This document shows, piece after piece, positions 2 to 36,300 of a stretch of DNA of 64,000 nucleotides. A program made the translations under genes and the position numbers. The stretch is taken from contig DZBU01000001.1 of assembly GCA_022730015.1 (NCBI GenBank), positions 1,307 to 65,306 on the forward strand. The letters are read 5' to 3'. Each line of letters starts with the position of its first letter. The first letter of the stretch is position 1. The DNA is from Candidatus Elulimicrobium sp. Lineage in GTDB: Bacteria > Patescibacteriota > Minisyncoccia > Phycocordibacterales > UBA918. The notes below the pieces were generated by a model. The model saw only the letters and a list, made by a program, of their open reading frames with translations, was not told the origin of the DNA and did no database searches.

Positions 2-760
2 GAAGAGTTTACCGTCTCGGCCGAGACCATTAAGGATGGGCTTCAGTATGTGAGCGTTAGCTTCAAAAATCAGGTTGGTTGGGGAGCGGTCACCAATCGT
101 AAGCTCAAGATTGACACCACTGCACCAGAACCGTTTGCTATCAATGTGCAAGCAGGCAATTCTCCAACTTCATTCCCGCTTCTACGGTTTGAGGCAAAGG
201 ATCTTACTTCTGGAATCGAATACTACGAGATGACGATCGCGGACAAAGAACCGCTTCGCATCACTCCAGACGAGGCACGACTTGGGTACATGCTTAAGGA
301 GCTTGAAGATGGTACCTACACGGTGAAGGTGGTTGCGACTGATATGGCTGGTAATGTTCGAGAGAGTAGTGTTGCGGTTTTGATCACTGCTGGTTGGGTT
401 AAGCCGATTGAAGTAGTAGAGGAAAGTTCATTCTGGGATTTTCTTACTCCGATCAACCTCTTCATCTTCTTCTTGATCGTCATTATTCTGCTTCAGGTTA
501 TATACTTCTGGTACGAGCACAAGGCACTCAAGGAACGAGAAGAGAAGCTTCGTCGAGAGATACGTGAGATTCAAGACCAGATGGAAAAGATCTTCTCGGC
601 ACTTCGGGATGAGATCTACGACCAGATCAATATGATCACTAAGCGCAAGCGACTATCAGCCAAAGAAAAAGAAGCGGTTGAGGCGCTCACGCAAGCACTC
701 GAAGTCTCAGAAACACTCATCGAGAAGGAAATCAATGATGTGAAGACTGTACTAAAATAA
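2..760 (+). CDS. 5'-truncated CDS: C-terminal part of a surface protein (Ig-like domain + TM helix + cytoplasmic coiled-coil tail). Paralog of the C-terminal half of the cohesin-like protein at 28320..30080.
   Basis: The frame is open from nt 2 with no stop before the track's GTG at 50. 'FKNQVGWGAVTNRKL...TAPEP...GTYTVKVVATDMAGN' aligns with 'FKNDEGWGKVTHYRL...VKPTA...GYHAVIVEAFDKAGN' of 28320..30080. A hydrophobic helix (INLFIFFLIVIILLQVIYFW) is followed by a K/E/R-rich heptad-like tail. Confidence 0.6.
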   Translation, partial: EEFTVSAETIKDGLQYVSVSFKNQVGWGAVTNRKLKIDTTAPEPFAINVQAGNSPTSFPLLRFEAKDLTSGIEYYEMTIADKEPLRITPDEARLGYMLKELEDGTYTVKVVATDMAGNVRESSVAVLITAGWVKPIEVVEESSFWDFLTPINLFIFFLIVIILLQVIYFWYEHKALKEREEKLRREIREIQDQMEKIFSALRDEIYDQINMITKRKRLSAKEKEAVEALTQALEVSETLIEKEINDVKTVLK

Positions 761-19014: not shown

Positions 19015-19075
19015 GCAGACTACATCTGTGGATGGAAGAGAGTGATATTTGTGTGGGCGATGCAATAATAGGGTA

Positions 19076-20398
19076 ATGGCAAAACCACTCATTGTTGCTC
19101 GTGATCTTTCGATCATCTATAACAAAGGAAAATCAAATGAGTTTAAAGCCCTGCAGGGTGTAAATACTGATATCTATGAAGGTGAATACATCATTTTGTT
19201 CGGCCCGTCTGGTTGTGGCAAGTCGACACTTATGTACTCCATTCAAGGGTCACTTCCACCTGGTGAAGGGACACTCCTGATTAAGGGTGACGATGTGTAT
19301 TCATATCCGCCGTCAGAGCGCGTGTATTTTCAACGATATGTGATGGGAATTATTTTCCAATCTTTCAATCTTATCGGTTCGCTTTCCGTACTCGACAACG
19401 TTGCGCTACCGATGATCTTTTGTGATACCGACAAGACCACGCGCAACCGTCGCGCGCAATCACTGCTTGATCGATTTGGGGTAGGACATGTTTCTCACAA
19501 ACTTCCGGCTATGCTTTCGGGGGGTCAGCAGCAGCGTGTGTCAGTAGCTCGGTCGATGGTTAACGATCCAAAGATCCTTCTGGCTGACGAACCAACTGGA
19601 AACCTGGACTCAGTTTCAACGCAACAGGTAATGGATAAGATTGATGAGATAAATACGTTCGATCGTCGAACTATTATTATGGTGTCTCACAACGCTGCTC
19701 ACTTGAGTTACGCACACCGAGTATATTATTTGAAGGATGGTTTTATTGTCCGTGAGGTTGTTAATCCACAGCGCAAACAGATCAAACCAGTGCGCGAAGG
19801 TGAAACCATTGTGACAGAGCTTGAGCAGCTTGCTCGACTGTATCCTTATGACTCAGTGGAGACTTTACGAGTAAAGAGCATGGTAAATTTCCTGACTCAG
19901 GAGTTCACATTTGATCAGATCATTCGTATTGAACGAGCGATTGGGTTGTTTATTCAGGGACGAGTTGACCGAGATAGTCTGATCAAAAGTTTGATTCTAT
20001 CACCGGAACGCGGGGGAGTTGGTATCTCAGAGCGTGAAGCGAGGGCGATGGCAACCACGGCCGAAAAAATGATTGATCGTTCGGCTGACATCAAGCGTTT
20101 TCGTGCTCGTAAAGACAACGACAATATTTTCTTCAGTCAGCACAAACTAGCAGAACGAATGCGAGACCATTTGGTACACGAGTTCAGGATCAAGCTCACA
20201 AAAGAACAGGATGAAAACTTGATTGAACTCATTGCTGATCGCGTGACCGGTGTGGTCACTCAAGAAGAATTAAACGAACGTCTTGCAAAAGGGGTGCGAG
20301 CTCGCGGTTTGGCTTTGAGTGAAAAAGAGGCTGATACGATGACTCGTTATTTCGAGAAAATCATCGCCCAGGGAGTAGATGTGAGTTACAAGAATTAA
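19076..20398 (+). CDS. ABC transporter ATP-binding protein (MacB/FtsE/LolD-like NBD) with an unusual ~220-aa helical C-terminal extension.
   Basis: Walker A GPSGCGKST, ABC signature LSGGQQQRVSVARS, Walker B ILLADEPTGNLD, H-loop SHN. I prefer ATG 19076 (MAKPLIVARDL) over the tracked 19049 start. Confidence 0.85.
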   Translation: MAKPLIVARDLSIIYNKGKSNEFKALQGVNTDIYEGEYIILFGPSGCGKSTLMYSIQGSLPPGEGTLLIKGDDVYSYPPSERVYFQRYVMGIIFQSFNLIGSLSVLDNVALPMIFCDTDKTTRNRRAQSLLDRFGVGHVSHKLPAMLSGGQQQRVSVARSMVNDPKILLADEPTGNLDSVSTQQVMDKIDEINTFDRRTIIMVSHNAAHLSYAHRVYYLKDGFIVREVVNPQRKQIKPVREGETIVTELEQLARLYPYDSVETLRVKSMVNFLTQEFTFDQIIRIERAIGLFIQGRVDRDSLIKSLILSPERGGVGISEREARAMATTAEKMIDRSADIKRFRARKDNDNIFFSQHKLAERMRDHLVHEFRIKLTKEQDENLIELIADRVTGVVTQEELNERLAKGVRARGLALSEKEADTMTRYFEKIIAQGVDVSYKN

Positions 20399-20427
20399 TT
20401 ATTGCGCTGGTGTGCGATAATGGATGA

Positions 20428-21642
20428 GTGAGAGTGCAAGATCTAGCACAACTTTCGACACGTATGTTCAAAACCAACCCGCTACGAACGTGGTTGACGA
20501 TTTTAGGTATGGGCGTTGGTACAGGAGCAGTGGTTGTTTTGGTAGGGCTGGGGTTCGGTTTGCAGCAGATCATTCTAGAGCAGATCGTGTTCGGTGAGAC
20601 ACTGCTTTCGCTGGGGGTATCGTCGACCGGTGCTCAGGGGTTGCGACTAACTCCCGAGACAGTCGCTGAATTTGAAGCACAGGATGCAGTTCTTGATGCG
20701 GCGCCGCTCGCACGTTTCCCTGCGCTTGTCACCTATAAGGGTCTTACTGGAAACGTGTTCGTGCAAGGTGTCGAGCCACCGTATTTGCGCTTCGCTGGGG
20801 TGACAGCGGAAGCTGGGGATGTGTTTACTGACGATGATGCCGGTGACACTTCCAGTATCATGCTTTCTCCAGCGGTCTTAAAACTTTTTGGTATTGCTGA
20901 TGAGGAGGTTGCTAATTTTATTGGTCAAAAAGTATCCTTGCGACTTCTAGTGCCTGCCAATGACGGTACAGACAATGTCAATGAAATTCCAATTGATAAA
21001 GAGTACGTAGTCCGTGGTATTACCAAGGAACAGGGAGTTCTTAATGTCATGATGATGCTTCCTGAGCTTCGTAATTATGTTGCTGTTAATGAATACGAGC
21101 GGATCCAGGTACGAGTTGATTCAAATGAAAATCTACCGTTGGTTGAAAAAGCATTGATAGAGGAAGGGTATCGAGTATCCGCACTGTCAAAAACTGTTGA
21201 GCAAGCGTCAAAAATATTCCAAGGAATCCAGATCGTCTTGGCGACTTTTGGTGGTATCGCACTCATTGTGTCAGCGATCGGTATGTTCAACACGATGACC
21301 GTGACCTTGCTCGAGCGCACTAAAGAAATCGGTATTATGCGCACGATCGGTGCTTCTCCCAATGACGTAAAGTACCTGTTCGTTTCAGAATCGATCGTGG
21401 TGGGTTTTTTGGGAGGAGTGAGTGGTATTCTGATGGGGCTTACTATTGGAATTACAGTTAATTTGTTTTTGAATTTTATTGCCGGTCAATTCGGGGGACA
21501 GGCAGTAAAATTATTTTCATTTCCACTCGATTTCCTAACTTTTATTGCGCTCTTTTCAGCTGGAGTTGGTTATCTTACCGGGGTCTTTCCAGCCCGTCGA
21601 GCCTCAAAACTCAATCCGCTTGATGCTATCAAGTATGAATAG
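20428..21642 (+). CDS. ABC transporter permease, FtsX/MacB-like, with one N-terminal TM helix, a large extracytoplasmic domain and a 3-TM FtsX C-terminal domain.
   Basis: It directly follows the NBD gene. The N-terminal TM is LRTWLTILGMGVGTGAVVVLVGL. The C-terminus 'IALIVSAIGMFNTMTVTLLERTKEIGIMRTIGAS' is a typical FtsX motif region. Confidence 0.8.
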   Translation: MRVQDLAQLSTRMFKTNPLRTWLTILGMGVGTGAVVVLVGLGFGLQQIILEQIVFGETLLSLGVSSTGAQGLRLTPETVAEFEAQDAVLDAAPLARFPALVTYKGLTGNVFVQGVEPPYLRFAGVTAEAGDVFTDDDAGDTSSIMLSPAVLKLFGIADEEVANFIGQKVSLRLLVPANDGTDNVNEIPIDKEYVVRGITKEQGVLNVMMMLPELRNYVAVNEYERIQVRVDSNENLPLVEKALIEEGYRVSALSKTVEQASKIFQGIQIVLATFGGIALIVSAIGMFNTMTVTLLERTKEIGIMRTIGASPNDVKYLFVSESIVVGFLGGVSGILMGLTIGITVNLFLNFIAGQFGGQAVKLFSFPLDFLTFIALFSAGVGYLTGVFPARRASKLNPLDAIKYE

Positions 21643-21745: not shown

Positions 21746-23602
21746 ATGTCGTACAACAACGAGAATCTGCCGCACTACGTTCGAACAGCAGGAAAGATAA
21801 CCATGATCACTGCCGTCGCAGGACTCCTGGTGTTCTTGTTTGCCTTCGTTTTTGATATTGGTACTCAGGAGCTCAATCGTGTCTCAGCTCAAACAGCCAC
21901 CACGACACTGACCGTGCTCAACACTCCTCCGGCATTCACTCTTAATCCGTATGAAGTTATTGAATCCTCGACATCAACTCCAACAAACTCAGGGAGCGTC
22001 ATTCAATGGTCTGCGATAGGTACAGATGCCAACGGTGCTGACTATTGGCTTCTGATCTGTAGCACAAGCGCTGTACCGACTCCCAATGCATCAGCAGCTC
22101 CGACCTGTGGTGCTGGTGCAGTGCAGTGGGGTGTCTCTGCACAAACGACAAGTGGAGCTCTCGCTACTGTTTCGACTACTACCCAGCAGTGGGGAGTTGG
22201 TCAGTTTGCAGAAGTGAATGTATGGTACGCATATGTTTGTGACGGTGACGCAGTAGACCCACGTTGTATCATTACACCAGAGCAGGGTGATTACGCGACA
22301 AGCTCTTCACCATTTAATATCAACAATCGTCCGGTGCTTGCCAACTTTGTCAATGACGGACCAGTAGACCCAGCCGGAGTATTGAATTTCTCCTCAACAT
22401 CAAGCGACCCTGACACAGCGGGTGGTGAAGACGACATACTCCTTGTAGTTTGTGGAACAAACACTGATTACAATGCAACCACTAACACCTGTAACAGTAA
22501 CTTCATTGCATCGACAACAATCAGTATGACTAGTGACGCGAGTGCGACCTACACCCTAGCGTCAATCGTTCGAGATGACACGTACGGAGCATACGGCTAC
22601 ATTGTTGACCAACACGGCCATGAAGCAACCGCAAACCCTCTCAATGCAGACTTTAACGTTAACAACGTTGCTCCGACTGTTCTTGGTGGTGATATAGACC
22701 TTAATGGAGGAGTGAATCTTTCTCTTTCAATTCCTGGTGGAGAAACTACCGGATTCACGCTTGGTTTTACAATTAGAGATGCCAATAGCTGTTTGAACGC
22801 TGCTTCTACAAGTGAGATAACTGCTTACGACGTTGCACTATTTAGATCTAGCTACGGAACTACCACCTGTAATGGTACCGGTGGATCATATGATCCAAAC
22901 TACTGTTATCCAAATGGCATTGCTACAACAACATGGAATCTGTCGTGTGCACCTACTACTACTTGCGCAAGTCCGCTCCAAGATTACATGGATTACACTT
23001 GTACCTTCCCACTATGGTTCGTAGCTGATCCAACCGATCCAGGACCTAATACGCCAGCATTATTTGCAGGTGACAATTGGTCAGTCGGTATTGCTGGGGA
23101 AGATGACGACACCTTGGTTGGAGCGATGTCGACCACCTCTAGTCCAGTTGAGTTGGTAAGCTTTAGTGCAATTGATATCCTCGATGCGCAAATCGCCTAC
23201 GGTGGGATTGAACCAGGAAACGATTCTGGAACCCTGTCCTCAACTTCTACTGCTCAAAACGTTGGTAATACCGGTCTTGATCAAGAAATCGTCGGTGAAT
23301 CCATGTGTGGTACCTTCTCAGTTTCAAATGAATGTATTACCTCAGCAACTTCAACTATTCCGGAGGATCAACAAAAATTCTCGACTACGTCTCTCGCTTA
23401 CGTAAGTCCGTTTGCCCAGATCCTTTCATCGACTACGCCAAACGAACTTGAACTTAACGTACCGAAGACAACATCAACATCAACTCCTAATGAGGGTACT
23501 ACTTACTGGGGTATCGCAGTTCCGATCACCATTACTCTGGCTGGAAACTACCAAGGTCTCAACACCTTTACTGCGGTAACGGCAGAAGCAGCAAACTGGT
23601 AA
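21746..23602 (+). CDS. Secreted/membrane-anchored Cys-rich surface protein with a WxL-like C-terminal module.
   Basis: N-terminal hydrophobic anchor ITMITAVAGLLVFLFAFVF and many paired Cys. The C-terminus '...AQNVGNTGLDQEIVGES...QQKFSTTSLAYVS...TTYWGIAVPITI...NTFTAV' is shared with the C-termini of 934..17424, 26030..27148 and 33372..38894. Confidence 0.7.
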   Translation: MSYNNENLPHYVRTAGKITMITAVAGLLVFLFAFVFDIGTQELNRVSAQTATTTLTVLNTPPAFTLNPYEVIESSTSTPTNSGSVIQWSAIGTDANGADYWLLICSTSAVPTPNASAAPTCGAGAVQWGVSAQTTSGALATVSTTTQQWGVGQFAEVNVWYAYVCDGDAVDPRCIITPEQGDYATSSSPFNINNRPVLANFVNDGPVDPAGVLNFSSTSSDPDTAGGEDDILLVVCGTNTDYNATTNTCNSNFIASTTISMTSDASATYTLASIVRDDTYGAYGYIVDQHGHEATANPLNADFNVNNVAPTVLGGDIDLNGGVNLSLSIPGGETTGFTLGFTIRDANSCLNAASTSEITAYDVALFRSSYGTTTCNGTGGSYDPNYCYPNGIATTTWNLSCAPTTTCASPLQDYMDYTCTFPLWFVADPTDPGPNTPALFAGDNWSVGIAGEDDDTLVGAMSTTSSPVELVSFSAIDILDAQIAYGGIEPGNDSGTLSSTSTAQNVGNTGLDQEIVGESMCGTFSVSNECITSATSTIPEDQQKFSTTSLAYVSPFAQILSSTTPNELELNVPKTTSTSTPNEGTTYWGIAVPITITLAGNYQGLNTFTAVTAEAANW

Positions 23603-23623: not shown

Positions 23624-23675
23624 ACAACAACCATTGTTATTCGACAATGGTTGTTGCTTTTTATGCTCTTTTTTT
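23624..23675 (+). terminator. Rho-independent terminator.
   Basis: 12-bp stem acaacaaccattg/caatggttgttg with an 8-nt loop, followed by ctttttatgctcttttttt. Confidence 0.65.
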
Positions 23676-24645: not shown

Positions 24646-25752
24646 ATGAGACTATTCTGGCTACTTTTTTTAGGCACTATGATAGTGACGCCAGAAGCCG
24701 TCACTGCCCAGACTAATTTATATTCTACGACCACCCTGACAGTCAGTATCTGTGGTAATGAAATCGTTGATGATGGTGAACAGTGTGATGTACTAGGAGA
24801 AACTGGCGTGTACAGTCAGACGATTGCTGGACGACAGTGTACGGTCTCCTGCATGTTTGGGCCCTATTGCGGAGACGGTATTCTGCAAACTCTTAACGAG
24901 GAAGAGTGTGACGATGGTAACAATGATAATTTAGACTTCTGTTCTGCCCTATGTAAGATCGAACCGGCCGGTTCCGGTGGTGGTGGTTCGTCAGGTGGTG
25001 GTTCTGGCGGCGGCGGGGGAAGCTCTCGCGATCTTGGGGATACTATCATTAGTGTAATTGGACGTGCGTATCCTTCGCGAACAATTAATTTTTTACTTGA
25101 TACGGTTTCGGTCGGTTCCGTGCGTTCGAGTAGTGACGGACGCTTTGAATTTTCGACTGCTGCTTCGCCTGGTACTGCGACGCTTGGTATTTGGGCAACA
25201 GACGCTGATGGCAATCGTTCGATCACGCTCAACAATACCTTTGATATCACACAAGGTGCTATCACAAACCTTAACGGTATTATTCTTCCACCAACCCTAC
25301 GTGTGCCGTCACAAAATATTGATCCAGGTGCGGTGCTCATTGTCTCTGGTGAGAGTGTGCCGAATGCCTCGGTTGAACTGCATGTTGATAATAGTGCGAT
25401 AGTAGAAAGCGCCGCTGTTGGCGCGGATGGAAAATGGACCGTCTCACTTAATACCAGTCGTTTATCGATTGCGGAACATACGCTACGAGCACGCACTATA
25501 GTTGGCACCCCACCACTTACCACTACAAGTAGTTTCAGTTCGTCAATGCAACTATTTGTTGGTGTTGAAGGTCGTGCAACATCACCTTCTGACCTTAACC
25601 GAGACGGATCGGTCAATTTGATCGACTTTTCTATTATGATCTTTTGGTGGGGAACCAATGGTGGAGATTCTGATCCACCAGCTGACATAAATGGTAATGC
25701 TAGAGTCAGTCTTGAGGACTTTTCTATTCTACTGTTCAACTGGACTGGATGA
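24646..25752 (+). CDS. Secreted dockerin-bearing protein: Myxococcus-type Cys-rich repeats, a Gly/Ser linker, Ig-like region(s) and a C-terminal type-I dockerin-like pair.
   Basis: True start ATG 24646 (MRLFWLLFLGTMIVTPEAVTAQ), which overlaps the preceding stop. 'CGDGILQTLNEEECDDGNNDNLDFCSALC', 'GSGGGGSSGGGSGGGGGSS'. Dockerin repeats 'DLNRDGSVNLIDFSIMIFWW' and 'DINGNARVSLEDFSILLFNW'. The TGA stop shows the standard code. Confidence 0.75.
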   Translation: MRLFWLLFLGTMIVTPEAVTAQTNLYSTTTLTVSICGNEIVDDGEQCDVLGETGVYSQTIAGRQCTVSCMFGPYCGDGILQTLNEEECDDGNNDNLDFCSALCKIEPAGSGGGGSSGGGSGGGGGSSRDLGDTIISVIGRAYPSRTINFLLDTVSVGSVRSSSDGRFEFSTAASPGTATLGIWATDADGNRSITLNNTFDITQGAITNLNGIILPPTLRVPSQNIDPGAVLIVSGESVPNASVELHVDNSAIVESAAVGADGKWTVSLNTSRLSIAEHTLRARTIVGTPPLTTTSSFSSSMQLFVGVEGRATSPSDLNRDGSVNLIDFSIMIFWWGTNGGDSDPPADINGNARVSLEDFSILLFNWTG

Positions 25753-25759
25753 TGAAGTA

Positions 25760-25785
25760 AAAACAGCTGCCATGGCAGCTGTTTT
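25760..25785 (+). terminator. Rho-independent terminator (perfect palindrome aaaacagctgccatggcagctgtttt, then T-rich).
   Basis: Read directly. It follows the stop at 25752. Confidence 0.6.
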
Positions 25786-26029
25786 GTGTATAAGTGACAC
25801 ATAAATTTCTTTCGGCATCGTACAATGAATGAGTATCTGCAAAGGAGGTAATCAATTAGTATTACTGCACGCGCTTTTTTAGCACGTGAGCACTTCAGCC
25901 GAGTGTGACTTTGTAGGTATACTTACAGTACGCATACATTAGAAGCGGAGTGGAGACCACTTCTAAGCACGATATTTCGTCTGAATCCTCACTATATAAA
26001 TTCAGGCTGTAAGGTAATACAACGTAGAT

Positions 26030-27148
26030 ATGCACAGAGCGTCAAACACGTTCTCAGTGCTCCAAGCTACCGCAGCGATAGTTGCCATGGCCATCATTCT
26101 TTGGTCCCTTGGCATCTCATCGATCCGCTTCGCGGAAGCTGCAAATGTCACCTCATTTAGTGATACACTGTCGAGCTCAGCTCCGACAGTCGCATCAGAC
26201 CACACCATTACGTTTACTACTCCTACTGGAGTAACAAACGGACAGACGATCACTGTTGATTTCTCAAATGGTCCATTTGTAGTCGGTTCAGTTGATTTTA
26301 CTGATATCGACGTCGCAACAACCTCTGGTGAATTTACTCTAGCCGCTGACTGTGCAGGCACAGACATGGCTAGTGCAGCATTTGCTGGAACTCTTCTTAC
26401 CATCACGATGTGTGCTGGTGACGGAGGTCTTATTGTTGCAAATGGAACTACTACCATTCAGATTGGTTTGAATGCAGCTGGCGGTAACGCTCAGCTCACA
26501 AATCCAGCTATTGGTTCTTACGAAATCAATTTGACCGCTGGTGCGTCTGACTCAGGTTCGACTCGAGTAGCAATCATCAGTACAGTTAACGTCACTGCTT
26601 CTGTTGATACCCTCTTTACCTTCTCGGTAACTGGTGTCGCAGGAAACCAAACAGTGAACGGAACTACTACTGGAGCTACTACTACAGCAACACTCATTCC
26701 ATTTGGAGTGCTTGATGCTGGCGTAGCTAGTACTGCTGCTCAAGATCTTTCCATTGTCACAAACGCACGAAATGGTTTCGTCGTTACTGTGACTGCAGAC
26801 GGGCAGCTCGATTCATCAACCGGTGCTGACATTGATGGTTTCCGTAATGGAAACTACGCTGCAACACCAGTTGCGTGGGAAGGACCAAGTTCTGCAGTTG
26901 GCTCAGAAGAGACGTATGGTCACTGGGGTCTAACCTCAGACGATACTGACCACTTCGCAGCCACACAGACCTATGTGTCAGCCTCAACCACACCGGTTGA
27001 AGTGTTTACACACTCGGGTCCGACAGATGGAACAACTACCGGCCAGGGTACTACCCGCGTCGGATACACCGTACAAATCGGCTCGCTTCAAGAAGCAGCT
27101 GATGACTACACTGCTACGCTGACATACGTAGCAACGCCAGTTTTTTAA
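26030..27148 (+). CDS. Secreted protein with a WxL-like C-terminal module. The N-terminus resembles a SipW-cognate/TasA-type signal ('...IRFAEA|ANVTSFSDTLSSS').
   Basis: The signal has n/h/c regions. 'IVTNARNGFVVTVTADGQL', 'HWGLTSDD', and the C-terminus 'DDYTATLTYVATPVF' is comparable to 'AGDYQTSIVYMSIPVF' of the 33372 protein. Confidence 0.7.
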   Translation: MHRASNTFSVLQATAAIVAMAIILWSLGISSIRFAEAANVTSFSDTLSSSAPTVASDHTITFTTPTGVTNGQTITVDFSNGPFVVGSVDFTDIDVATTSGEFTLAADCAGTDMASAAFAGTLLTITMCAGDGGLIVANGTTTIQIGLNAAGGNAQLTNPAIGSYEINLTAGASDSGSTRVAIISTVNVTASVDTLFTFSVTGVAGNQTVNGTTTGATTTATLIPFGVLDAGVASTAAQDLSIVTNARNGFVVTVTADGQLDSSTGADIDGFRNGNYAATPVAWEGPSSAVGSEETYGHWGLTSDDTDHFAATQTYVSASTTPVEVFTHSGPTDGTTTGQGTTRVGYTVQIGSLQEAADDYTATLTYVATPVF

Positions 27149-27149
27149 A

Positions 27150-27215
27150 AAATTGGCTCCAAGCTTGGAGTAAAACAAAAAACCCTATCTCCCACCACGA
27201 GACGGGTTTTTTGTA
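27150..27215 (+). terminator. Terminator region: palindrome ctccaagcttggag plus the hairpin ccctatctcccaccacgagacggg followed by ttttttg.
   Basis: Read directly after the stop at 27148. Confidence 0.5.
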
Positions 27216-27263
27216 TGTGTACAGGACAGCGAGGAGACGTTAATCCACTGCTATACTAGTATC

Positions 27264-28310
27264 ATGAAATGGAACCTTACCTTTTTATCGCTGCTTTTTT
27301 TTGGGTTTGTAATTACGACACTTCCGCAGACAGTGACTGCTGCTTCACTCTATATTGATCCAGCGACCAGTGTCGTCAATCGTGGCGACTCGATTACCCT
27401 GGCAGTTCGCCTCGATACTGACGAGGAAAATGGTGAATGTGTAAACACTGTTGACGGAACCATAAAATATTCAGAAAACATTGAAGCAGTAGATACTTCA
27501 ATTGGTGATTCTATATTTCGTTTGTGGATAGAAGCGCCCACTATTAATCCTGCCGATCGTACGATTACTTTTGCTGGGGGGATACCAAATGGTTACTGTG
27601 GTCGAGTCGCTGGAGATCCACGTTTGACCAATGTGCTATTTGAGATTGTTTTGCAGTCACCAGGCTTTTCAGTGGGAAGCGGAGGAACAACGGCTACGAT
27701 CGATTTTGCTCCAGAAAGCTCAGCGCTTTTAAATGATGGGTTTGGTACTAAAGCTGAGCTCGTAACGTATCCTGCGAAAATTGAGCTTGATCCGCGACCT
27801 GGTACATCGCTACAAAATCCGTGGCGTGAAGAAGTGTTGACTGACAGTGTTCCACCAGAAGAATTTGTTATAAGCCTTCAGTTAAAAGGTGAAGTAAATG
27901 CTGATAAGCACTACATCACCTTTAGTACAAATGATAAACAAACTGGTATAGATCATTATGAAGTAATAGAAGAACCGCTGACACAGTTTGGCTCATTTCA
28001 GTGGGGGAGGGCGGATGCACCGTGGGTGATTGTAAATGAACCAGAAAATATAAGGTATGTTCTTAATGACCAGTCACTGAATAGTATCATTCGGGTTAAA
28101 GCGATCGACAAGGCTGGCAATGAGTATGTCGCAACGTTAATTCCAGATGATTCACTCCGAACAGTTTCAGGTGATCAGTTGCTCATCATCGTTGCTGGAG
28201 TTGGTGTTGTCATTTTGTTTGCTGTGATTGGATTAGTGGTCTGGTCACGAATACGAAATCGCCGCAAGACAATCGACGTTGCGTCTACAAAAAATGATGA
28301 GCAAGCATAA
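27264..28310 (+). CDS. Cohesin-domain surface protein (signal peptide, cohesin-like module, Ig-like region, C-terminal TM, short basic tail).
   Basis: Signal MKWNLTFLSLLFFGFVITTLPQTVTA. The cohesin-like 'ITLAVRLDTDE...VDGTIKYSENIEAVDTSIGDSIF...ITFAGGIPNGY...TNVLFEIVLQSPG' resembles the Pfam cohesin consensus as I recall it ('ikYDpsvLevvsv..G'). TM LIIVAGVGVVILFAVIGLVVW. Confidence 0.75.
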   Translation: MKWNLTFLSLLFFGFVITTLPQTVTAASLYIDPATSVVNRGDSITLAVRLDTDEENGECVNTVDGTIKYSENIEAVDTSIGDSIFRLWIEAPTINPADRTITFAGGIPNGYCGRVAGDPRLTNVLFEIVLQSPGFSVGSGGTTATIDFAPESSALLNDGFGTKAELVTYPAKIELDPRPGTSLQNPWREEVLTDSVPPEEFVISLQLKGEVNADKHYITFSTNDKQTGIDHYEVIEEPLTQFGSFQWGRADAPWVIVNEPENIRYVLNDQSLNSIIRVKAIDKAGNEYVATLIPDDSLRTVSGDQLLIIVAGVGVVILFAVIGLVVWSRIRNRRKTIDVASTKNDEQA

Positions 28311-28319
28311 AAAATCATT

Positions 28320-30080
28320 ATGAGCAGCACAACAAATAAACCACTACTTCAGATCACTCGTGCTGTTGCCGTGTTTGGGCTTTTGATTGCACTTTATTTA
28401 GGTGTTCCTAGTAATGCTGATGCTGCTTCACTAGGTTTGTCACCGAGTACTGGCGTTTATACTGCTAATGGAACATTCACTGCACGTGTCATTGTTAATA
28501 CGGATGGAAAATCAGTTAATGCAGCTGAAGGAACACTCTCTTTTAACCCACGTGAATTGTCGGTTGTTTCAGTCAATCGATCTGGTTCCATCTTTAACCT
28601 CTGGGTGACCGAACCAACCTTTTCAAATAGCGCAGGTACTATTTCGTTCAGTGGGGGACTCCCGTCAGGGTACACGGGATCTGCCGGAACGATCATGAAT
28701 GTCACTTTTCGAGCAGCCGGCGCGGGAACCGCTCGAGTAAATTTTAAAAATGGGTCAGTCTTAGCAAATGATGGGCGAGGGACCAATATTCTTACAACAA
28801 TGAATGGCGGCAACTACACCATTCAGGCCCAAGCGACTACTCCTGTGCCGGAAGAAATTGAGTATGTAGCTCCTGCCAACACGCCAGCAGCTCCGCAGGT
28901 CACTTCTTCTACCCACCCGGATCAGGCCGCTTGGCACCAGATGAAGGAGGCAACACTTACCTGGAATGTTCCTGTCGGAGTTACTGCAGTTCGGACATTA
29001 CTCGATCAAAATTCTACTTCGATCCCAACCAAAGTTTATGACGATCCGATCAGATCAATTACGTTATCTGACTTGCCTGAAGGTGTTTCTTATTTTCATA
29101 TACAGTTCAAAAACGATGAAGGTTGGGGTAAGGTAACACATTACCGTCTCGCGGTTGATTCAGTGAAGCCGACCGCCATAGATATCAAGCTGGCCGCTGA
29201 CGATCTTAGTAACCCACAGCAGTCACTCAAGATTACTGTTACTGATGAGACATCGGAAGTAACTAATTTTAAAGTTAAACTTGACGCAAGTGAACCGTTC
29301 GAATTTGTTGAAGAAACCGCTTCGTCAACGATTCCTCTGCCAGCGTTAGAGCCTGGATACCATGCAGTCATCGTAGAAGCGTTTGATAAGGCCGGAAACA
29401 GTATCGTGGGTACACATTCGTTTACGATCGAGGCGTTTGATCGACCACGATTTATTGAGTACCCACAGGAGATAAGCGAAGATGTCATCCCACTTATTAA
29501 AGGTCAAACTCGTCCAAATGCCCAGGTAGATATTTTTGTAACACCACTCGGCGCTGAGTCAGTGACATATTCGATAACTGCTAATGAGACTGGGGAATTC
29601 ATCTTTATCCCAAGCGGACGTTTTACAACCGGTGTCTATGAGATTGCTGCTCAAGCAACTGATACCTTTGGAGCCAGAAGTGATATCTCCGAGTCGATTC
29701 GAATTGCGGTACAGCAACCTGGCTTTATTCGCATCGGTTCGCTGATCGTTAATGTGCTCTCGGTGCTTATACCGCTCATTGTCCTCGCTGCGATACTTAT
29801 TATTGGTGTCTGGTATCTTATAGTCTATGCTCGACGATTCCGTCGACAGGTGACTGTAGAATCAATTGAGGCACTTGAGATGTTGCGTCGTGAGTTCACT
29901 GAACTCCAAACAACACTTTCTCATCAGGAGAACATTTTAGCTGATACTCGGACGGCAAAGAAGTTAACCAAAGCTGAATCAGCAATGATCGAAGCAATCG
30001 GTATTGCACTCAAATCTTCCCAGCAAAAAGTAGAAAAGGAAATCAAAGATATTACGGCACTGACTAATAAGAATAAGTAA
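28320..30080 (+). CDS. Cohesin-domain surface protein 2 (signal, cohesin-like module, Ig-like domains, TM, cytoplasmic coiled-coil tail).
   Basis: 'ARVIVNTDGKSVNAAEGTLSFNPRELSVVSVNRSGSIFNLWVTEP...ISFSGGLPSGYTGSAGTIMNVTFRAAGAG'. TM LIVNVLSVLIPLIVLAAILIIGVWYLIVY, then a heptad-like K/E tail. It lies 9 nt after the preceding gene, so the two are likely one operon. Confidence 0.75.
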   Translation: MSSTTNKPLLQITRAVAVFGLLIALYLGVPSNADAASLGLSPSTGVYTANGTFTARVIVNTDGKSVNAAEGTLSFNPRELSVVSVNRSGSIFNLWVTEPTFSNSAGTISFSGGLPSGYTGSAGTIMNVTFRAAGAGTARVNFKNGSVLANDGRGTNILTTMNGGNYTIQAQATTPVPEEIEYVAPANTPAAPQVTSSTHPDQAAWHQMKEATLTWNVPVGVTAVRTLLDQNSTSIPTKVYDDPIRSITLSDLPEGVSYFHIQFKNDEGWGKVTHYRLAVDSVKPTAIDIKLAADDLSNPQQSLKITVTDETSEVTNFKVKLDASEPFEFVEETASSTIPLPALEPGYHAVIVEAFDKAGNSIVGTHSFTIEAFDRPRFIEYPQEISEDVIPLIKGQTRPNAQVDIFVTPLGAESVTYSITANETGEFIFIPSGRFTTGVYEIAAQATDTFGARSDISESIRIAVQQPGFIRIGSLIVNVLSVLIPLIVLAAILIIGVWYLIVYARRFRRQVTVESIEALEMLRREFTELQTTLSHQENILADTRTAKKLTKAESAMIEAIGIALKSSQQKVEKEIKDITALTNKNK

Positions 30081-30086
30081 ATCATT

Positions 30087-30773
30087 ATGAAGCCATCACA
30101 ATTTTCAAAAAAAACAACGTTAACTATCGTAGGTATTGCTTCGGTGATTGTGATGTTGGGGATCGTTCTCGTTACTGTAATGGTAAATGCTCGTCTAGAA
30201 TCTCTTGAGCAAAATATTAGACTTACCATTGCAGATCAGGAGTCAACTTTGGTTGCGATCGCAGAGATCACCGCACGCAACGGAGCGGATGTTGTCACGG
30301 AATCAGTCATAAAAGATTGTACGACAGCCGAACGAGGAGAATTTGATGATCTTCTTGGTCGACTCAATAGTGGTCTTTCACGAACTGAGCTTGTTACTCT
30401 TGAGCGTTTATTCGGTCGATGCGGATCATTCTACGCAGAGCGAAAAGCGATCATGGTTGCTCGTTTGTCGCGAGAGATCGAAGTGTATACGGCTTATGTG
30501 GCTCAGCTCAGTGCAATACGTAATGAGGATCTTCTGGTTAGTTTTAAAGTAGAACGCTGGGAGGCACTTGCTACCGAGGAGCGTAAACAAAGTCAGCTAT
30601 TTGCTGAACTGGTGGCACTACAAGACCAAATTATTTCCACATTGCTCTCAGGTAAAAGCACTGCTTCACCTGAAATGCAAGAGATACTACAACAAGCACG
30701 CGAGACACAGGAAACGTTACTGGTCGCAAATAAGCAAACAGGAACTATCCGTGCAGAACTGATTTCATTGTAA
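30087..30773 (+). CDS. Small membrane-anchored coiled-coil protein (N-terminal TM, then an alpha-helical E/Q/L-rich region).
   Basis: TM LTIVGIASVIVMLGIVLVTVMV. It sits 6 nt after the previous stop and 5 nt before the next start, so it is operon-internal. Confidence 0.55.
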   Translation: MKPSQFSKKTTLTIVGIASVIVMLGIVLVTVMVNARLESLEQNIRLTIADQESTLVAIAEITARNGADVVTESVIKDCTTAERGEFDDLLGRLNSGLSRTELVTLERLFGRCGSFYAERKAIMVARLSREIEVYTAYVAQLSAIRNEDLLVSFKVERWEALATEERKQSQLFAELVALQDQIISTLLSGKSTASPEMQEILQQARETQETLLVANKQTGTIRAELISL

Positions 30774-30778
30774 TCGCC

Positions 30779-31522
30779 ATGGACACGATCCGTCGTCATA
30801 TTCAATCGTATACAAAGGCTAGGACGGGGAGTGCCACTGTTCATTTTTTATACCCCACTTTTTTCATGACGGCGATCATCTTTGCCATCGCGGTCACGAC
30901 TGGAAATGATGTCTCATATGTTCGCCTCGAAACTTCGGCGGCTACCGTTGAAGCTGGTAGCCGCTTCACTGTTGATGTGTATGCGTACGCTCATGTTCCG
31001 GTAAATGCCGTTGACATAACTTTACGCTTTGACTCCGCCGCGGTTGAGGTGCTAGAGGTTGATCGTGGACAGTCAGTGTTAACTATTTGGACAGAAGATC
31101 CAGTGATCGAAAAAGATAGGGTTATTCTCCGTGGGGGCACTTTTAGACGAGGGTTTATTAAAGAACATAAGATTGCCTCTATCGATCTAAAAGCAAAACA
31201 AACTGGTCAAAGTGACTTTAAAGCAACGGATGTCATGCTACTCGCGGGTGATGGAGCTGGTACCCCTGTCTCAGTGGCTGAAGCTCTCGATTCAGCGGTT
31301 AGCTTGTATATCTATGATGAAAATACTAGTCCCGAGAGTATCGGGGTGGATGTAAACGTCAAGATCCTTACTGATCTTGATGGTGACGGGAAGGTTACGC
31401 TTAAAGATATCAGCGCCTTCATGTCCTCATGGCATACAAAAGATAAAATGTATGATTTTAATGGCGATGGACGAATGAGTTTTCGTGATTTTTCGATAAT
31501 TTTAGCTACTTTCTTTTTTTAG
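30779..31522 (+). CDS. Membrane-anchored protein carrying both a cohesin-like module and a C-terminal dockerin-like pair (adaptor-type).
   Basis: 'TVDVYAYAHVPVNAVDITLRFDSAAVEVLEVDRGQSVLTIWTEDP'. Dockerin repeats 'DLDGDGKVTLKDISAFMSSW' and 'DFNGDGRMSFRDFSIILATF'. Confidence 0.75.
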   Translation: MDTIRRHIQSYTKARTGSATVHFLYPTFFMTAIIFAIAVTTGNDVSYVRLETSAATVEAGSRFTVDVYAYAHVPVNAVDITLRFDSAAVEVLEVDRGQSVLTIWTEDPVIEKDRVILRGGTFRRGFIKEHKIASIDLKAKQTGQSDFKATDVMLLAGDGAGTPVSVAEALDSAVSLYIYDENTSPESIGVDVNVKILTDLDGDGKVTLKDISAFMSSWHTKDKMYDFNGDGRMSFRDFSIILATFFF

Positions 31523-31635
31523 AGACTAACTCCTGTTGATAGTTTTACTCAAAAACCGTTTGGTCACCTGTTATTATTAGTTTGTGGTGTGCCTCGCCAC
31601 AACAACGTACAACGTAGAGCGTATTCATTCTTGTA

Positions 31636-33360
31636 ATGCGCTCGCAAAAACATTTTGGTACAAATCGGGGGAGCCACCATGCGTGGTTGTATTCTCTTGT
31701 GTTTAAAGGAAGATTCTCAGCGTTTGCTGTGGCTTTTTTGTTTTTGTCTTTTTTGATACAACCATTCCACCAAGCACTGGCCAACGAAGCGATTGAAGAA
31801 GTAGAAACTGAAGCTGTTTTGCCTGAAGAAGTTGCCGAGCAACTACCAAGTGTTGTTATTGAAGGAGAGACAGAGGAATTGACGACAGTTGATGAACTAA
31901 TAGAAGGGCAATCAGATTTAAATATTGAGGAGTCTGCGCCCGAGAGTATAGAGCAAGAGTTTTCTGTTGACCCTGTAATCAATGATGAATCTGCTGCTTC
32001 ACCAAACACGGGGACGAGCAATGATGGTGCGGAAATAATCGTGAATGAACAGCTTTCTGAACCATCTGTAATTTCTAAAGAAGAACAGCTTCCTGATGTT
32101 GTAACTACTGAAGCAAGTGAGTCAGCTGGTGGAGATTCCGGTTTAGATATCAGCGCAGAAGAGCAAGTGTCGAGCTCAAATATTGAAGATGACGATACCC
32201 CTTCAACATCCAATGAGCTAATCGACGAAAAAGCTATCGAAGCCGGAGTCAATGACCTGGTTGGTAGTGTGGTTAATGAAGTGGTTACGCTGACGAGGCA
32301 AATGGTAACTGAAGAGAATTTCTATCAGTTTAGTCGGCAGTCGTGTGTGGCAGTTGGTGACGGTACCTTTCACTGTACTTCTAAGGAGCGCGCTACGTTA
32401 GACCCAGATAGCGCTGTCTATGCCGATCGTGATGAGGCAGGAGATATGGAAATATACATGCGAACCTCAAAAGGCGATATTAAGCAGCTTTCTGATAATG
32501 ACTACGATGATACTGCTCCAGATATGGACCTCGCTTCTATGCGGGCAGTGTGGCAACGATTGGTTGACGGTCGTTATCAAATTATTTCGTATGATCTTGA
32601 GGAACGAAAAGAGACACAGCTTACATTTTCTCGTACCAACAGCATGGAGCCAAAAGTGGCAAAGGAGGGGGTGGTGTGGCAGGCGTGGGATGGTAATGAT
32701 TGGGAAATAATGTTTTTCGATGGTCAGGTCACTGATCAGATCACTGATAATGAAATACAAGATGTAACACCCGTTATCGAAGATGGCTACGTGCTATGGA
32801 GTGTCCTTGGAGGAGAAGCGTCAGAAGCTAGGGTCTACTCAATAGAAAGCGGAGAGCTCATGACCATTACTGGACATGAAGGTGGTGCTGTAGCAAACCC
32901 GCGCTTTGTGCTTGTGTACGATACTAAGTTCGATAATGGTGATGTGATCACGCAGGGTTTTGATCCAGTGACTGGTTTGGCGACACCGCTCTCATCAAAG
33001 CCCGCTGAGCTTCCGTTCAATATTCCAGAACCAGACCCAGTAGGTGAGATTAGAGCGTTGATACAAAATAAATCAACGCAAAAAGATAAAGAGGTGATAA
33101 CCGTACCGGTGACGACCGATGGAGGTGATTTAAATCTTGCCAGTACGAGCGTCACCACCACTGATACCCTCGTGCTTAGTGGTACAACTGATCTTGGTGA
33201 TGAGACGGCGATACTTTATACAGAGCCAGAACCAGATTTTGAACTGACTGAATATGACTTGGTGATCACTAAAGAGGCTAGTTCAACTAACTCTGTATTG
33301 AATCGACAATTTTATCTAGATATCGGAGCAGTTGAAAGTGCCTCAAGTACACAGCGCTAA
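31636..33360 (+). CDS. Secreted acidic (D/E/S-rich) protein with a C-terminal beta-propeller-like region. The likely true start is TTG/GTG near 31690-31705, giving the signal ...FSAFAVAFLFLSFLIQPFHQALA|NE.
   Basis: There is no internal Met after the tracked start. The N-terminal hydrophobic segment is followed by ~180 aa of acidic low complexity. Then 'VVWQAWDGNDWEIMFFDG', 'YVLWSVLGG' and 'RFVLVYD' type blade-like repeats. Confidence 0.6.
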   Translation: MRSQKHFGTNRGSHHAWLYSLVFKGRFSAFAVAFLFLSFLIQPFHQALANEAIEEVETEAVLPEEVAEQLPSVVIEGETEELTTVDELIEGQSDLNIEESAPESIEQEFSVDPVINDESAASPNTGTSNDGAEIIVNEQLSEPSVISKEEQLPDVVTTEASESAGGDSGLDISAEEQVSSSNIEDDDTPSTSNELIDEKAIEAGVNDLVGSVVNEVVTLTRQMVTEENFYQFSRQSCVAVGDGTFHCTSKERATLDPDSAVYADRDEAGDMEIYMRTSKGDIKQLSDNDYDDTAPDMDLASMRAVWQRLVDGRYQIISYDLEERKETQLTFSRTNSMEPKVAKEGVVWQAWDGNDWEIMFFDGQVTDQITDNEIQDVTPVIEDGYVLWSVLGGEASEARVYSIESGELMTITGHEGGAVANPRFVLVYDTKFDNGDVITQGFDPVTGLATPLSSKPAELPFNIPEPDPVGEIRALIQNKSTQKDKEVITVPVTTDGGDLNLASTSVTTTDTLVLSGTTDLGDETAILYTEPEPDFELTEYDLVITKEASSTNSVLNRQFYLDIGAVESASSTQR

Positions 33361-33371
33361 CATAGGTTTTT

Positions 33372-36300
33372 ATGGCGAGCTCACGTAAAATCAAGGAACC
33401 TATGACTTGGAGTAAGCGACAGCGAGATCGTTTGCTTTCGCCAGTGGCGGGGTTTATGATCGCGCTCCTTGCCACTCAGATGCTGCATGAGCTACTACCG
33501 ACACTTGTTCCACCGCTCGTACGCACTGTTGAAGCAGCGACTGCAACCATCGATCCAAATGGCGATATTGGTACTAATACCGGCACCCGTGTCACCTGTA
33601 CCGGCACGGTCTATTTTGAATGTCTTAATGATGCCGTACGTGATCCGTCAACTCCTAGCACAGCAGGTGATTATGTTGAGTATGCTGGCGGCAATCAGAC
33701 GAACTCGGACATGACATCGGTAACAAATGTTGCCACTGCTACGGCAATAGCCGTGAAGACGTACCATCAGGAAACGGGTACTAACATGACTCTGTCTGTT
33801 TCCTTGGTGAACGCAGCCGGTACGGTGATCGCTGGGCCGACAAGCGTCACTAATCGTGCTGTCACGCAGTGGGACACTATCACCTTCTCTGGTTTAACCT
33901 TAAATCAGGCAACGCTCGATGGTCTGTGGGTGCGCCAAACCTGTACACGCTCGGGTGGTAGCTCGGCCAACCGCTGTCGATCATTTGCCATGTACGCTGA
34001 TGTTACCTACGATCCGGTCATTAATGTAACCGTAAGCTCATTAGGAACTCAGCAAGATCTCGGTATCGCCACTTCTTCTGCTTATGTCGGAGGTAGCTTT
34101 GCCATTATTGAAAATACCTCTAGCCGCAGTATCACTTCGGTCACAGTCGCCGAACAGGGAACAGTTGATGCTCAAAATAGTTTGGACAACATAAAGCTCT
34201 ACTATGATTTAGACACTTCTAGTCCATATAACTGCTCGAGTGAATCATACGCCGGAACTGAGACGCAGTATGGAACTACTGACACTGATGGTTTTTCTAG
34301 TTCAAACGGCACCTCAGTGTTTACGGGCTCGGTGACCATCAGTACGACCCAGGCAATGTGTGTGTATGTCGTACTCGATGTTCTCAGCACGGCTACTGCA
34401 GGGGAGACCTTGGAAGTACAGATCACTGATCCGACTCTAGATGTGGTGGGAAGTGGTTCGCCGGTCATTAGTCCAGCGACAGCTGTGCTCCTTCCTGGGA
34501 CAACGACTCTGCGTAAGCCACTGCTGACGCAGGAGAACTATCACTGGCGAAATGATGACGGTAATGAAACCGCTGCTAGCTCAGCCACCGGAGGCAGTGA
34601 GAATACTTCGTACGCTACTTTTCCCAAAGCAGTCACTAAACGACTGCGCGTTGCGGTTTCCAATGAGGGAAATGCTGATTCAGCTGCCTCCCAATTTAGG
34701 CTTGAGTACGCGCAGAAAGTGACGACCTGTAGCGCGGCGACCGGCTGGACTGATGTCGGCGCGAGTACTGATGATTTTGATATGTCGCCAACTGGCAATA
34801 TTACTGACGGTGATAATTCAACAGATATCTCCAATGCCATTGGCGGTGTGACCAACCCTAACAGTAGTCTCTTGAGTTCAAACGGTGGTCTTCGTGATAC
34901 CAACTCGCAGACTGGTTCACTGACCTTGACGAGTACGCAGTTTGTCGAACTTGAGTATGCAATCATCGCAAGTAGTGGTCTTACCGACGGAACGACGTAC
35001 TGCTTCCGTGTGACCAATGCCGGTACGCCACTCCCGGCGTACACCAACTACCCAGAGGCCACCATTGCGGCAGATGTGCTGGTCGACTCGATCGGTTCGC
35101 AGACCACCACGGTCACCATTCCTACTACTGGTCAGTATGCTGGCGGAGCCTTCCGGGTCACCGACCTCACTGCGGGCGCTGGGACGATATCAAGTATTGC
35201 CATCACCGCCAGTGGGAGCATCGATATTCAAAATGATGTAGCAACTATCACGCTTCGTTACGACCTCGACACGAGTAATCCCTATACCTGTGACGATGTT
35301 TCGTATGCCAATACTGACGCGTCGTTTGGCAGTACGGTTGCAAATTTTAATGGTAGTAACAAAGCGACCTTCACCGGTTCAGTCAGTAATTCACCGACAC
35401 AAACGGTGTGTCTCTATGTCGAATACAACGTGGGCACGGGCGCCAGTAACGGTGAGTTGCTCGACCTTCGTATTGTTGATCCATCGAGTGAAGTGGTGAT
35501 CAGCGGTTCATCTGTGTCGCCTAATACTCCGGTCGATATCGGGGATGTGACAACTTTTGCGGCGCCGTATGTGGAGCAAGTTAACTATCACTGGCGTAAC
35601 AACGATGGTTCGGAAACAACCGCTAGCTCTGCCACGGGTGGGACACAGAACACTCCGCTCACTGAGGTGGCCAAGAATTCTACGTACCGACTGCGTTTTG
35701 CAGTGGCCAATACTGGTCTCACGACAGCACCAGAAACGCGCTATCAGCTCGAATGGGCGCAAAAGGTGAGCACGTGTAGCGCGGTGCCGGATATCGACTG
35801 GGAGCGTGCTGATACAATACTTGATGCCTGGCAAATGTCACCGACTGGTAACCTTACTGAAGGAAACGACACGACTGACATTGTAGAGAGTACGGGAGGG
35901 GTGGGGAACCCAGCTGCAACGTTTCTGGTTAATAATAACGGTGTCAACGATACGACAGACCTAACTGCCTCTTCGACATTGCCAGCTGACAATTACCTCG
36001 ACTTAGAATATTCGATCAGCGCCACCGATGATTCAGTGCAGGGGGCGACCTACTGTTTCCGAGTGAGTGCAGCTGGTAGTGCGTTAGTAAATTATACGAA
36101 TTATCCTGAGGTGAGTATCAAACTCGATACCGACTTCAAGGTACAACGAGGAGTATCGACGATTACTGGTGACACACTGACTATCACTGCTGGAGTTGAG
36201 TACGAGGCGCCACTTACCTCGAGTAGCTCGTTCATTCGTATCACCAACACGCAACTTACCGGTGCTGGGCCGAACACTGGCAACACCAACAGCAACGCCG

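Follow-up and report, generated by a model that had tools for sequence, protein, structure and literature searches.

We analysed a 64-kb window of the ~1-Mb genome of Candidatus Elulimicrobium sp. (contig DZBU01000001.1), in which positions 24646-31522 encode a set of extracellular cohesin and dockerin modules; all coordinates below are those of this window unless a relative is named. Every gene of the window lies on the plus strand. The interval comprises six genes (Table 1), whose products are, in order, 368, 372, 348, 586, 228 and 247 amino acids (aa) long. Four of the six carry modules, with g372 and g228 having neither a cohesin nor a dockerin. A preliminary description of this DNA had placed a cohesin-dockerin cassette here in five adjacent genes. 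The feature is real and was correctly recognised, with minor errors, such as the gene count, and with an underestimated extent. Its seven quoted peptides all occur in the open reading frames (ORFs) to which they had been assigned, and both module types are supported by a combination of profile, homology and fold. The ATG at 24646 is consistent with the length of most doc368 orthologues (366-383 aa). ORFs on the minus strand that overlap these genes (24864-25802 and 31545-32252 are examples) were taken as shadows of the conserved, domain-bearing plus-strand genes.

Table 1. Cohesin- and dockerin-bearing genes of the window, with their companions and the adjoining transporter genes (Ig, immunoglobulin).
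Feature	Position	Strand	Description	Basis
C-terminal half of a fourth cohesin-anchor protein (~509 aa; coh~509)	2..760	+	Ig/FN3-like domain, transmembrane helix, cytoplasmic helical tail	65% identity over 252 aa to the C-terminal half of the 509-aa protein of L065
ABC ATPase and MacB/FtsX-type permease	19049..21642	+		Pfam ABC_tran, MacB_PCD, FtsX; synteny
doc368	24646..25752	+	Signal peptide, Cys-rich acidic repeats (DUF4215 / myxo_disulf_rpt), Gly/Ser linker, two Ig-like domains (Big_6), C-terminal dockerin	Pfam, NCBIfam
Dockerin of doc368	25591..25749	+	Two F-hand Ca loops, 25591-25626 and 25684-25719	Regular expression, shuffle control
g372	26030..27148	+	N-terminal transmembrane/signal segment; neither cohesin nor dockerin	Conserved place in gene order
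coh348	27264..28310	+	Signal peptide, cohesin-fold module (about 27336-27800), second beta domain, C-terminal transmembrane helix (residues 308-326), short basic tail	
coh586	28320..30080	+	Signal peptide, cohesin (about 28422-28829), Ig-like domains (Big_13, OmpL47-type), transmembrane helix (residues 479-497), ~90-aa cytoplasmic helical tail (29811-30077)	Pfam, hydropathy
g228	30087..30773	+	N-terminal transmembrane anchor, helical domain, two conserved Cys	Synteny in 58 loci, conservation
cohdoc247	30779..31522	+	N-terminal hydrophobic anchor, cohesin (about 30908-31288), ~30-aa linker, dockerin 31367-31519 (Ca loops at 31373 and 31454)	Pfam, model

Type I dockerins are defined by tandem segments of ~22 residues without an entering helix. 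A regular expression for the 12-residue F-hand Ca loop, applied to all six reading frames of the 64 kb, gave exactly four matches, at 25591, 25684, 31373 and 31454, which are arranged as one tandem pair at the very C-terminal end of each of doc368 and cohdoc247; shuffled DNA or proteins gave a mean of 0.12-0.15 matches and a maximum of 2. Both proteins have the type I layout, with two tandem segments that each comprise a 12-residue Ca loop (D or N at positions 1, 3 and 5 and D at 12) and a following helix, which in doc368 reads DFSI(M/L)(I/L)F(W/N)W after each loop. Against Pfam Dockerin_1 (PF00404, cut-off 22.9 bits), doc368 scores 27.0 bits and cohdoc247 scores 22.9 bits, exactly the cut-off. 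The same family is found in 41 of 41 doc368 orthologues (best E 6.5e-10) and in 36 of 38 cohdoc247 orthologues (best 1.4e-7), and NCBIfam adds only a sub-threshold match to a GC-type dockerin. Conservation of the module is extreme. Ca-ligand positions and the helices that follow them are invariant or nearly so among orthologues, residues D316, D320, D327, D347, N351 and D358 of doc368 being invariant in 41 sequences, and the dockerin is the best-conserved segment of doc368, with an identity of 0.77-0.98 per 20-aa block.

The cohesins were recognised by a combination of profile, homology and fold. Pfam Cohesin (PF00963, cut-off 24.1 bits) is found at E<=0.01 in 23 of 36 coh586 orthologues (best E 1.5e-11) and in 23 of 38 cohdoc247 orthologues (best E 5e-8); cohdoc247 carries both module types, as had been described. 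Profile searches had been put forward as a check on the five modules of the interval; four of them match at the family level, and the fifth, that of coh348, fails and was rescued by fold and homology only. The three cohesin modules of the window are mutually homologous by BLASTP (9e-18, 4e-7 and 1e-5) and by hhalign (probability 99.7, E 2e-25, and 98.2, E 5e-14). In Foldseek searches with the structural models of coh348 and cohdoc247, the tops of the PDB hit lists hold solved cohesins only, and the modelled modules superimpose on their flattened beta-sandwich (jelly-roll) fold. The cohdoc247 model, with a predicted local distance difference test (pLDDT) of 70-86 over the cohesin part, has cohesins as all of its first 50 PDB matches, the best being 2vo8 of Clostridium perfringens (TM-score 0.83). 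Searches against PDB sequences returned nothing for the coh586 sequence and, for the cohdoc247 family profile, no cohesins and only EF-hand proteins, which match the dockerin part; the fold is therefore not settled by sequence alone. The coh348 type, with homologues in 1219 clusters, is a cohesin subfamily that current profiles miss. Homologues of cohdoc247 fall into 754 clusters, the best 120 of which are 59-100% identical and 217-261 aa long; the few named members among these 120 are labelled Kaiserbacteria, Nomurabacteria or Parcubacteria.

Membrane topology was read from a Kyte-Doolittle scan. The doc368 protein has a cleavable-type signal peptide and no further hydrophobic segment, and is therefore secreted. 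Both coh348 and coh586 have an N-terminal signal peptide and a single C-terminal transmembrane helix, an arrangement that places the cohesin at the membrane-distal end of an Ig-like stalk. In cohdoc247, a basic N-terminus is followed by one hydrophobic segment, either a signal anchor or an uncleaved signal. Together, these signal peptides and anchors are predicted to put every module outside the cell. The cohesin proteins had been described as membrane-anchored with cytoplasmic coiled-coil tails; the transmembrane helix is present in coh348 and coh586, but a long tail is found only in coh586, where ~90 aa form a helical, charged segment with conserved motifs, coh348 having ~22 residues beyond its helix. 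The helix and tail of coh586 are homologous to those of ORF 2-760 (E 2e-6). The pair C59/C112 is invariant in coh348 and C78/C112 is highly conserved in g228, and doc368 has its Cys-rich repeats, which suggests that these cysteines may form extracytoplasmic disulfides. Two coh586 orthologues, L028:7501-9243 and L059:7473-9281, contain one in-frame stop codon each, which could reflect a pseudogene, an assembly error or recoding.

The modules of the interval are as real as had been proposed, but the system reaches further than its described limits, with a fourth cohesin protein at the left edge of the window and a third dockerin upstream of it in relatives. ORF 2-760 is cut by the window edge and the cohesin module of coh~509 lies beyond it; full-length orthologues score 30.2-30.4 bits against Pfam Cohesin. 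A phmmer search with the 64-aa dockerin of doc368 against 1.84e9 representatives returned many proteins of ~570-650 aa with a C-terminal dockerin 60-75% identical to the query. In one of these ~620-aa dockerin proteins, P0249, the C-terminal half (Gly linker, two Ig domains and dockerin) is homologous to doc368 (E 3e-49, ~40% identical) and the N-terminal head is homologous to the N-terminal half of g372 (BLASTP 1e-11). P0249 thus shares its stalk and dockerin with doc368 but its head with g372, giving one stalk and plug with different heads. No Pfam or NCBIfam family matches g372.

The ~620-aa dockerin proteins come from genomes that also have the operon. Four of four contigs looked up have the order doc~620, HSP20, ~510-aa cohesin protein and giant protein, and one of them also holds the operon (L040 and L065). 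We retrieved 80 metagenome loci with ORF 2-760, with counts limited to those having enough flanking DNA: the pair doc~620 and HSP20 immediately precedes coh~509 in 49 of 49, and the giant gene lies downstream in 44 of 49. In L071, a 96%-identical relative, the upstream dockerin protein scores 37.6 bits against Dockerin_1 and the cohesin protein 30.2 bits against Cohesin, both over the cut-offs. Since the third dockerin gene would lie outside the window, and no metagenome contig exactly matched the window's left end when searched for it, the presence of this gene in this genome is read from L071. On this basis, the full set would be four single-cohesin proteins and three dockerins. Two further observations concern this neighbourhood. 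The HSP20 gene (L064-L067; L071:4735-5202), with a presumably cytoplasmic product, is wedged between the genes for a secreted dockerin protein and a cohesin anchor in 49 of 49 loci, and in one relative the ~620-aa dockerin gene is preceded, at a distance of a few kb, by type IV pilus genes (T2SSE, T2SSF, PilM and N_methyl pilins; L064:288-7551).

None of the four cohesin proteins has more than one cohesin module or any carbohydrate-binding module (CBM), and the motifs S-x-(F/L)-x-(L/I)-W and L-x-x-D-G-x-G-T are common to all four cohesins. The cohesins of coh586 and coh~509 are 49% identical, compared with 36% for coh348 and coh586, 29% for coh348 and coh~509, and 25-34% for cohdoc247 and the others. 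Among the dockerins, those of doc368 and doc633 (L071) are 80% identical, and that of cohdoc247 is 43-47% identical to these two.

In genomes sampled at one per species, a scan identified 61 loci, of which 60 are labelled Patescibacteria/Paceibacteria or plain 'bacterium', the complete 0.99-Mb chromosome CP060229.1 among them. By tblastn of the window proteins against the 61 loci, gene order is the same in all loci long enough to show it: FtsX, 618, 315, doc368, 372, coh348, coh586, 228, cohdoc247, 574, 1840, 341 and 571, where bare numbers are protein lengths in aa. The g228 gene, which matches no Pfam or NCBIfam family, lies between coh586 and cohdoc247 in each of 58 loci. Across relatives, the locus proteins are 40-80% identical and of nearly fixed length. 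This pattern is that of a core locus passed on vertically, as opposed to a variable island of adhesins.

Across all sizeable ORFs of the window, Pfam scans turned up no glycoside hydrolase, esterase, lyase or CBM, in agreement with the preliminary description, which had noted no glycoside hydrolases. The dockerin proteins have Cys-rich repeats or Ig domains only, so that no dockerin-tagged carbohydrate-active enzyme was found; no tandem-cohesin scaffoldin with a CBM occurs among the four cohesin proteins; and Pfam and NCBIfam searches gave no SLH or LPXTG matches, the anchors being transmembrane helices rather than SLH or sortase anchors. With every tested defining feature absent, the set is not a cellulosome or amylosome.

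Because these proteins are either secreted or anchored in the membrane, the most parsimonious interpretation is that they serve docking during assembly of the surface. We consider it rather probable that this is an enzyme-free, non-cellulosomal cohesin-dockerin docking set that helps to build a fixed cell-surface protein assembly of Paceibacteria (Patescibacteria/Candidate Phyla Radiation, CPR). On this reading, a Ca-dependent scaffold would tether non-enzymatic, Ig-stalked head proteins to the membrane within a conserved envelope locus of 45-60 kb. On the sequences at hand, we infer cohesin-dockerin binding, its pairing and its biological role as follows. The type-I membrane proteins coh348, coh586 and coh~509 would each hold one cohesin atop an Ig-like stalk above the membrane. 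Secreted doc368, with its Cys-rich head, and the ~620-aa protein, with a head like the N-terminal half of g372, would plug into these cohesins via their Ca2+-binding dockerins, both heads being presented on a Gly-linker/Ig/Ig stalk. The cohdoc247 protein, with one cohesin and one divergent dockerin, may act as an adaptor or a self-associating link that joins or extends the array. The set would form one block of a vertically inherited locus together with the giant protein, the MacB-type transporter, threonine/serine-rich (T/S-rich) surface proteins and a peptidoglycan-binding protein, a locus whose probable function is to organise the envelope and/or attach the cell to a partner.

From the sub-type identities of cohesins and dockerins, we infer two specificities: the near-identical dockerins of doc368 and doc~620 would bind the coh586/coh~509 type, and the dockerin of cohdoc247 would bind coh348 or, by analogy with Amy4 of Ruminococcus bromii, its own cohesin. 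The dockerin is the part of doc368 that has changed least, and its 80% identity to that of doc633, against ~40% for doc368 and the C-terminal half of P0249, may be a sign of a conserved interface. On the cohesin side, the strands that bear the shared motifs are conserved, which may be an indirect hint of the Ca2+-dependent dockerin binding that cohesins perform on their 8-3-6-5 sheet.

Several observations weigh against docking. The window proteins coh586 and cohdoc247 score 24.0 and 22.7 bits against Pfam Cohesin, both just below the cut-off. The coh348 protein of the window has no match to this family, none of 40 members of its family has one even at E<=1, and the family profile finds no match among PDB sequences. 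In cohdoc247, the dockerin is more compact than in doc368, with Ca loops that start 27 rather than 31 residues apart; EF-hand models slightly outscore Dockerin_1 on it (27.1 vs 22.9 bits, Pfam); and its two helices (residues 208-220 and 235-246) are predicted at a pLDDT <55, in the sole model that holds a dockerin. Finally, it is common, as Peer et al. are said to have reported in 2009, for cohesin-like and dockerin-like modules to be orphans with no known partner.

In a rival reading, the modules have genuine folds without being each other's partners: the cohesin-fold domains would be generic beta-sandwich tips of membrane-anchored adhesins that bind a host or wall ligand, and the dockerins would be Ca2+-stabilised modules with some other target, for instance a glycan, peptidoglycan or a host surface. 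The invisibility of the coh348 family to the cohesin profile, the mismatch of four cohesins with three dockerins and the many orphan modules that generally are known to exist would all suit it. We regard it as unlikely, though with a real chance of being right, given that the two types of module are, without exception in the genomes examined, conserved together as neighbours and that the dockerin is the best-conserved segment of its protein, helix positions beyond the Ca ligands included. A variant of the docking model, which we hold to be improbable, has cohdoc247 polymerise head-to-tail into a membrane chain or lattice, with the other module proteins capping or decorating it. Its combination of one cohesin and one dockerin across a ~30-aa linker is suited to this, as are the distinct type of its dockerin and the unusual conservation of its 754-cluster family in sequence and length, and R. 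bromii Amy4, in which the cohesin recognises the protein's own dockerin, provides a precedent (PMC4611034). However, the N-terminal hydrophobic anchor would restrict cohdoc247 to a membrane-bound array, and the model gives no confident placement of the dockerin.

Cohesins and dockerins are also the hallmark of cellulosome- and amylosome-type degrading complexes, and the 64 kb inspected are part of a ~1-Mb genome, so that enzymes might be encoded elsewhere; one relative has a weak Cellulase/GH39 match ~7 kb upstream of a dockerin gene. A true degrading complex is nonetheless very improbable: no glycoside hydrolase, carbohydrate esterase, polysaccharide lyase or CBM domain occurs in any window gene (Pfam), the three identified dockerins are all on non-catalytic Ig-stalk proteins, the closest dockerin proteins inspected among the 1.84e9 representatives have the same non-catalytic architectures, and no protein has tandem cohesins.

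The envelope locus of 45-60 kb also encodes FN3 proteins, T/S-rich proteins and a MacB-type ABC transporter. In all relatives whose locus extends far enough, the FtsX gene is seen at its upstream edge, and the ABC ATPase (19049-20398) has a helical C-terminal extension of ~260 aa past the ABC domain, a candidate cytoplasmic partner of the cohesin-anchor tails. The giant gene (934-17424, plus strand) encodes a secreted protein of 5496 aa with DUF2341 and Ig_Rha78A_N matches, whose orthologues are 5600-7240 aa long; its C-terminus (YWGIAVP...) resembles that of the 21746-23602 protein. The cassettes on either side of the interval had been described as WxL-like, for which Pfam offers no support: WxL did not match the proteins starting at 26030 and 21746 (E<=1) or at 33372 (E<=0.01). 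The protein that closes the conserved locus (39807-41522, plus strand) scores 27.3 bits against WxLIP_PGBD (DUF916), exactly the cut-off, and has a C-terminal LytR_C domain and three hydrophobic segments. It is the sole protein to reach that cut-off, those starting at 23697 and 38900 having no WxLIP_PGBD match in Pfam or NCBIfam. The proteins of 26030-27148 and 33372-38894 have in common the C-terminal motif Y-x-(A/T)-(T/S)-(L/I)-x-Y-(V/M)-(A/S)-(T/I)-P-V-F, which may be an undescribed sorting or anchoring motif.

Outside the surface locus, the window encodes housekeeping functions, including Tgt, UvrABC, Ddl, a two-component system and two tRNA-Ala genes. Between a response-regulator gene (50256-51068) and a histidine-kinase gene (53469-54827) lies a gene (51106-53472, plus strand) for a protein of 788 aa that has a Big_13 Ig-like domain, and 42042-42611 encodes a thioredoxin-fold (Redoxin/AhpC-TSA) protein. 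A scan for promoters and terminators found fewer promoter-like sites than in shuffles and nothing informative around 26030. A strong terminator-like hairpin (23625-23656, plus strand; a 14-bp stem, then a T-run) lies between the 618-aa and 315-aa genes, within an otherwise tightly packed co-directional array.

We speculate, while thinking it quite unlikely, that the set forms the core that bears the load in a surface organelle by which the Paceibacteria lineage is defined, be it a structure for attachment to a host or a lattice in the envelope. Such an organelle would be coupled across the membrane, in that the MacB-type ABC transporter and the conserved tails that coh586 and coh~509 have in the cytoplasm would let the cell assemble, remodel or release docked heads from inside. 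If so, the plug-and-socket principle of the cellulosome would be newly used as essential CPR envelope architecture. Our literature search on cohesin or dockerin in CPR, Parcubacteria, Patescibacteria or Kaiserbacteria found no relevant paper, and the classic paper on Parcubacteria genomes names nothing beyond type IV pili and large proteins that resemble adhesins (PMC4508563). CPR/Patescibacteria make up a large share of bacterial diversity and are thought to live attached to other cells, and their surface-building proteins are almost entirely unknown. The present module set, of four cohesins and three dockerins whose topology is predicted and which have clear orthologues in 61 species or more, is conserved and tractable, and opens a route through recombinant binding to an initial map of the connections within a surface complex of Paceibacteria.

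It is already known that cohesin and dockerin modules occur widely outside cellulosomes. The OlpA and OlpC proteins of Clostridium thermocellum are anchored to the wall through SLH modules and dock cellulosome enzymes or scaffoldins. We know of no description of the cohesin/dockerin pair of Archaeoglobus fulgidus as belonging to an extensive envelope locus that is conserved throughout a lineage; Peer et al. 2009 reportedly described a wider set of non-cellulosomal modules. As single-cohesin anchoring proteins, OlpA and OlpC (PDB 3ul4, 4dh2) resemble the present anchors, which differ in being held by transmembrane helices, followed in two cases by a cytoplasmic tail that is conserved, and in docking proteins without a catalytic domain. 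The A. fulgidus modules (PDB 2xdh) are non-cellulosomal like the present set, but they are an archaeal pair with different anchoring and partners. The single cohesins of C. perfringens toxin/glycosidase complexes (2vo8, 2jh2, 2w1n) are likewise non-cellulosomal; they lie within secreted glycoside hydrolases and link enzymes, whereas those described here are on membrane anchors with non-catalytic partners. The R. bromii amylosome offers single-cohesin proteins, the surface anchor Sca2 and Amy4, with a mutually recognising cohesin and dockerin (PMC4611034), and the presence of both modules in one protein parallels cohdoc247. Its cargo consists of GH13 amylases with CBMs and Sca2 is sortase-anchored, in contrast to the absence of enzymes and the transmembrane-helix anchors here. 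With the WxL/Csc complex of Firmicutes, the locus has in common a CscA-like WxLIP_PGBD domain in the 39807-41522 protein, without the WxL domain itself. What is new relative to these systems is a cohesin-dockerin system that is enzyme-free, transmembrane-anchored and vertically conserved rather than accessory.

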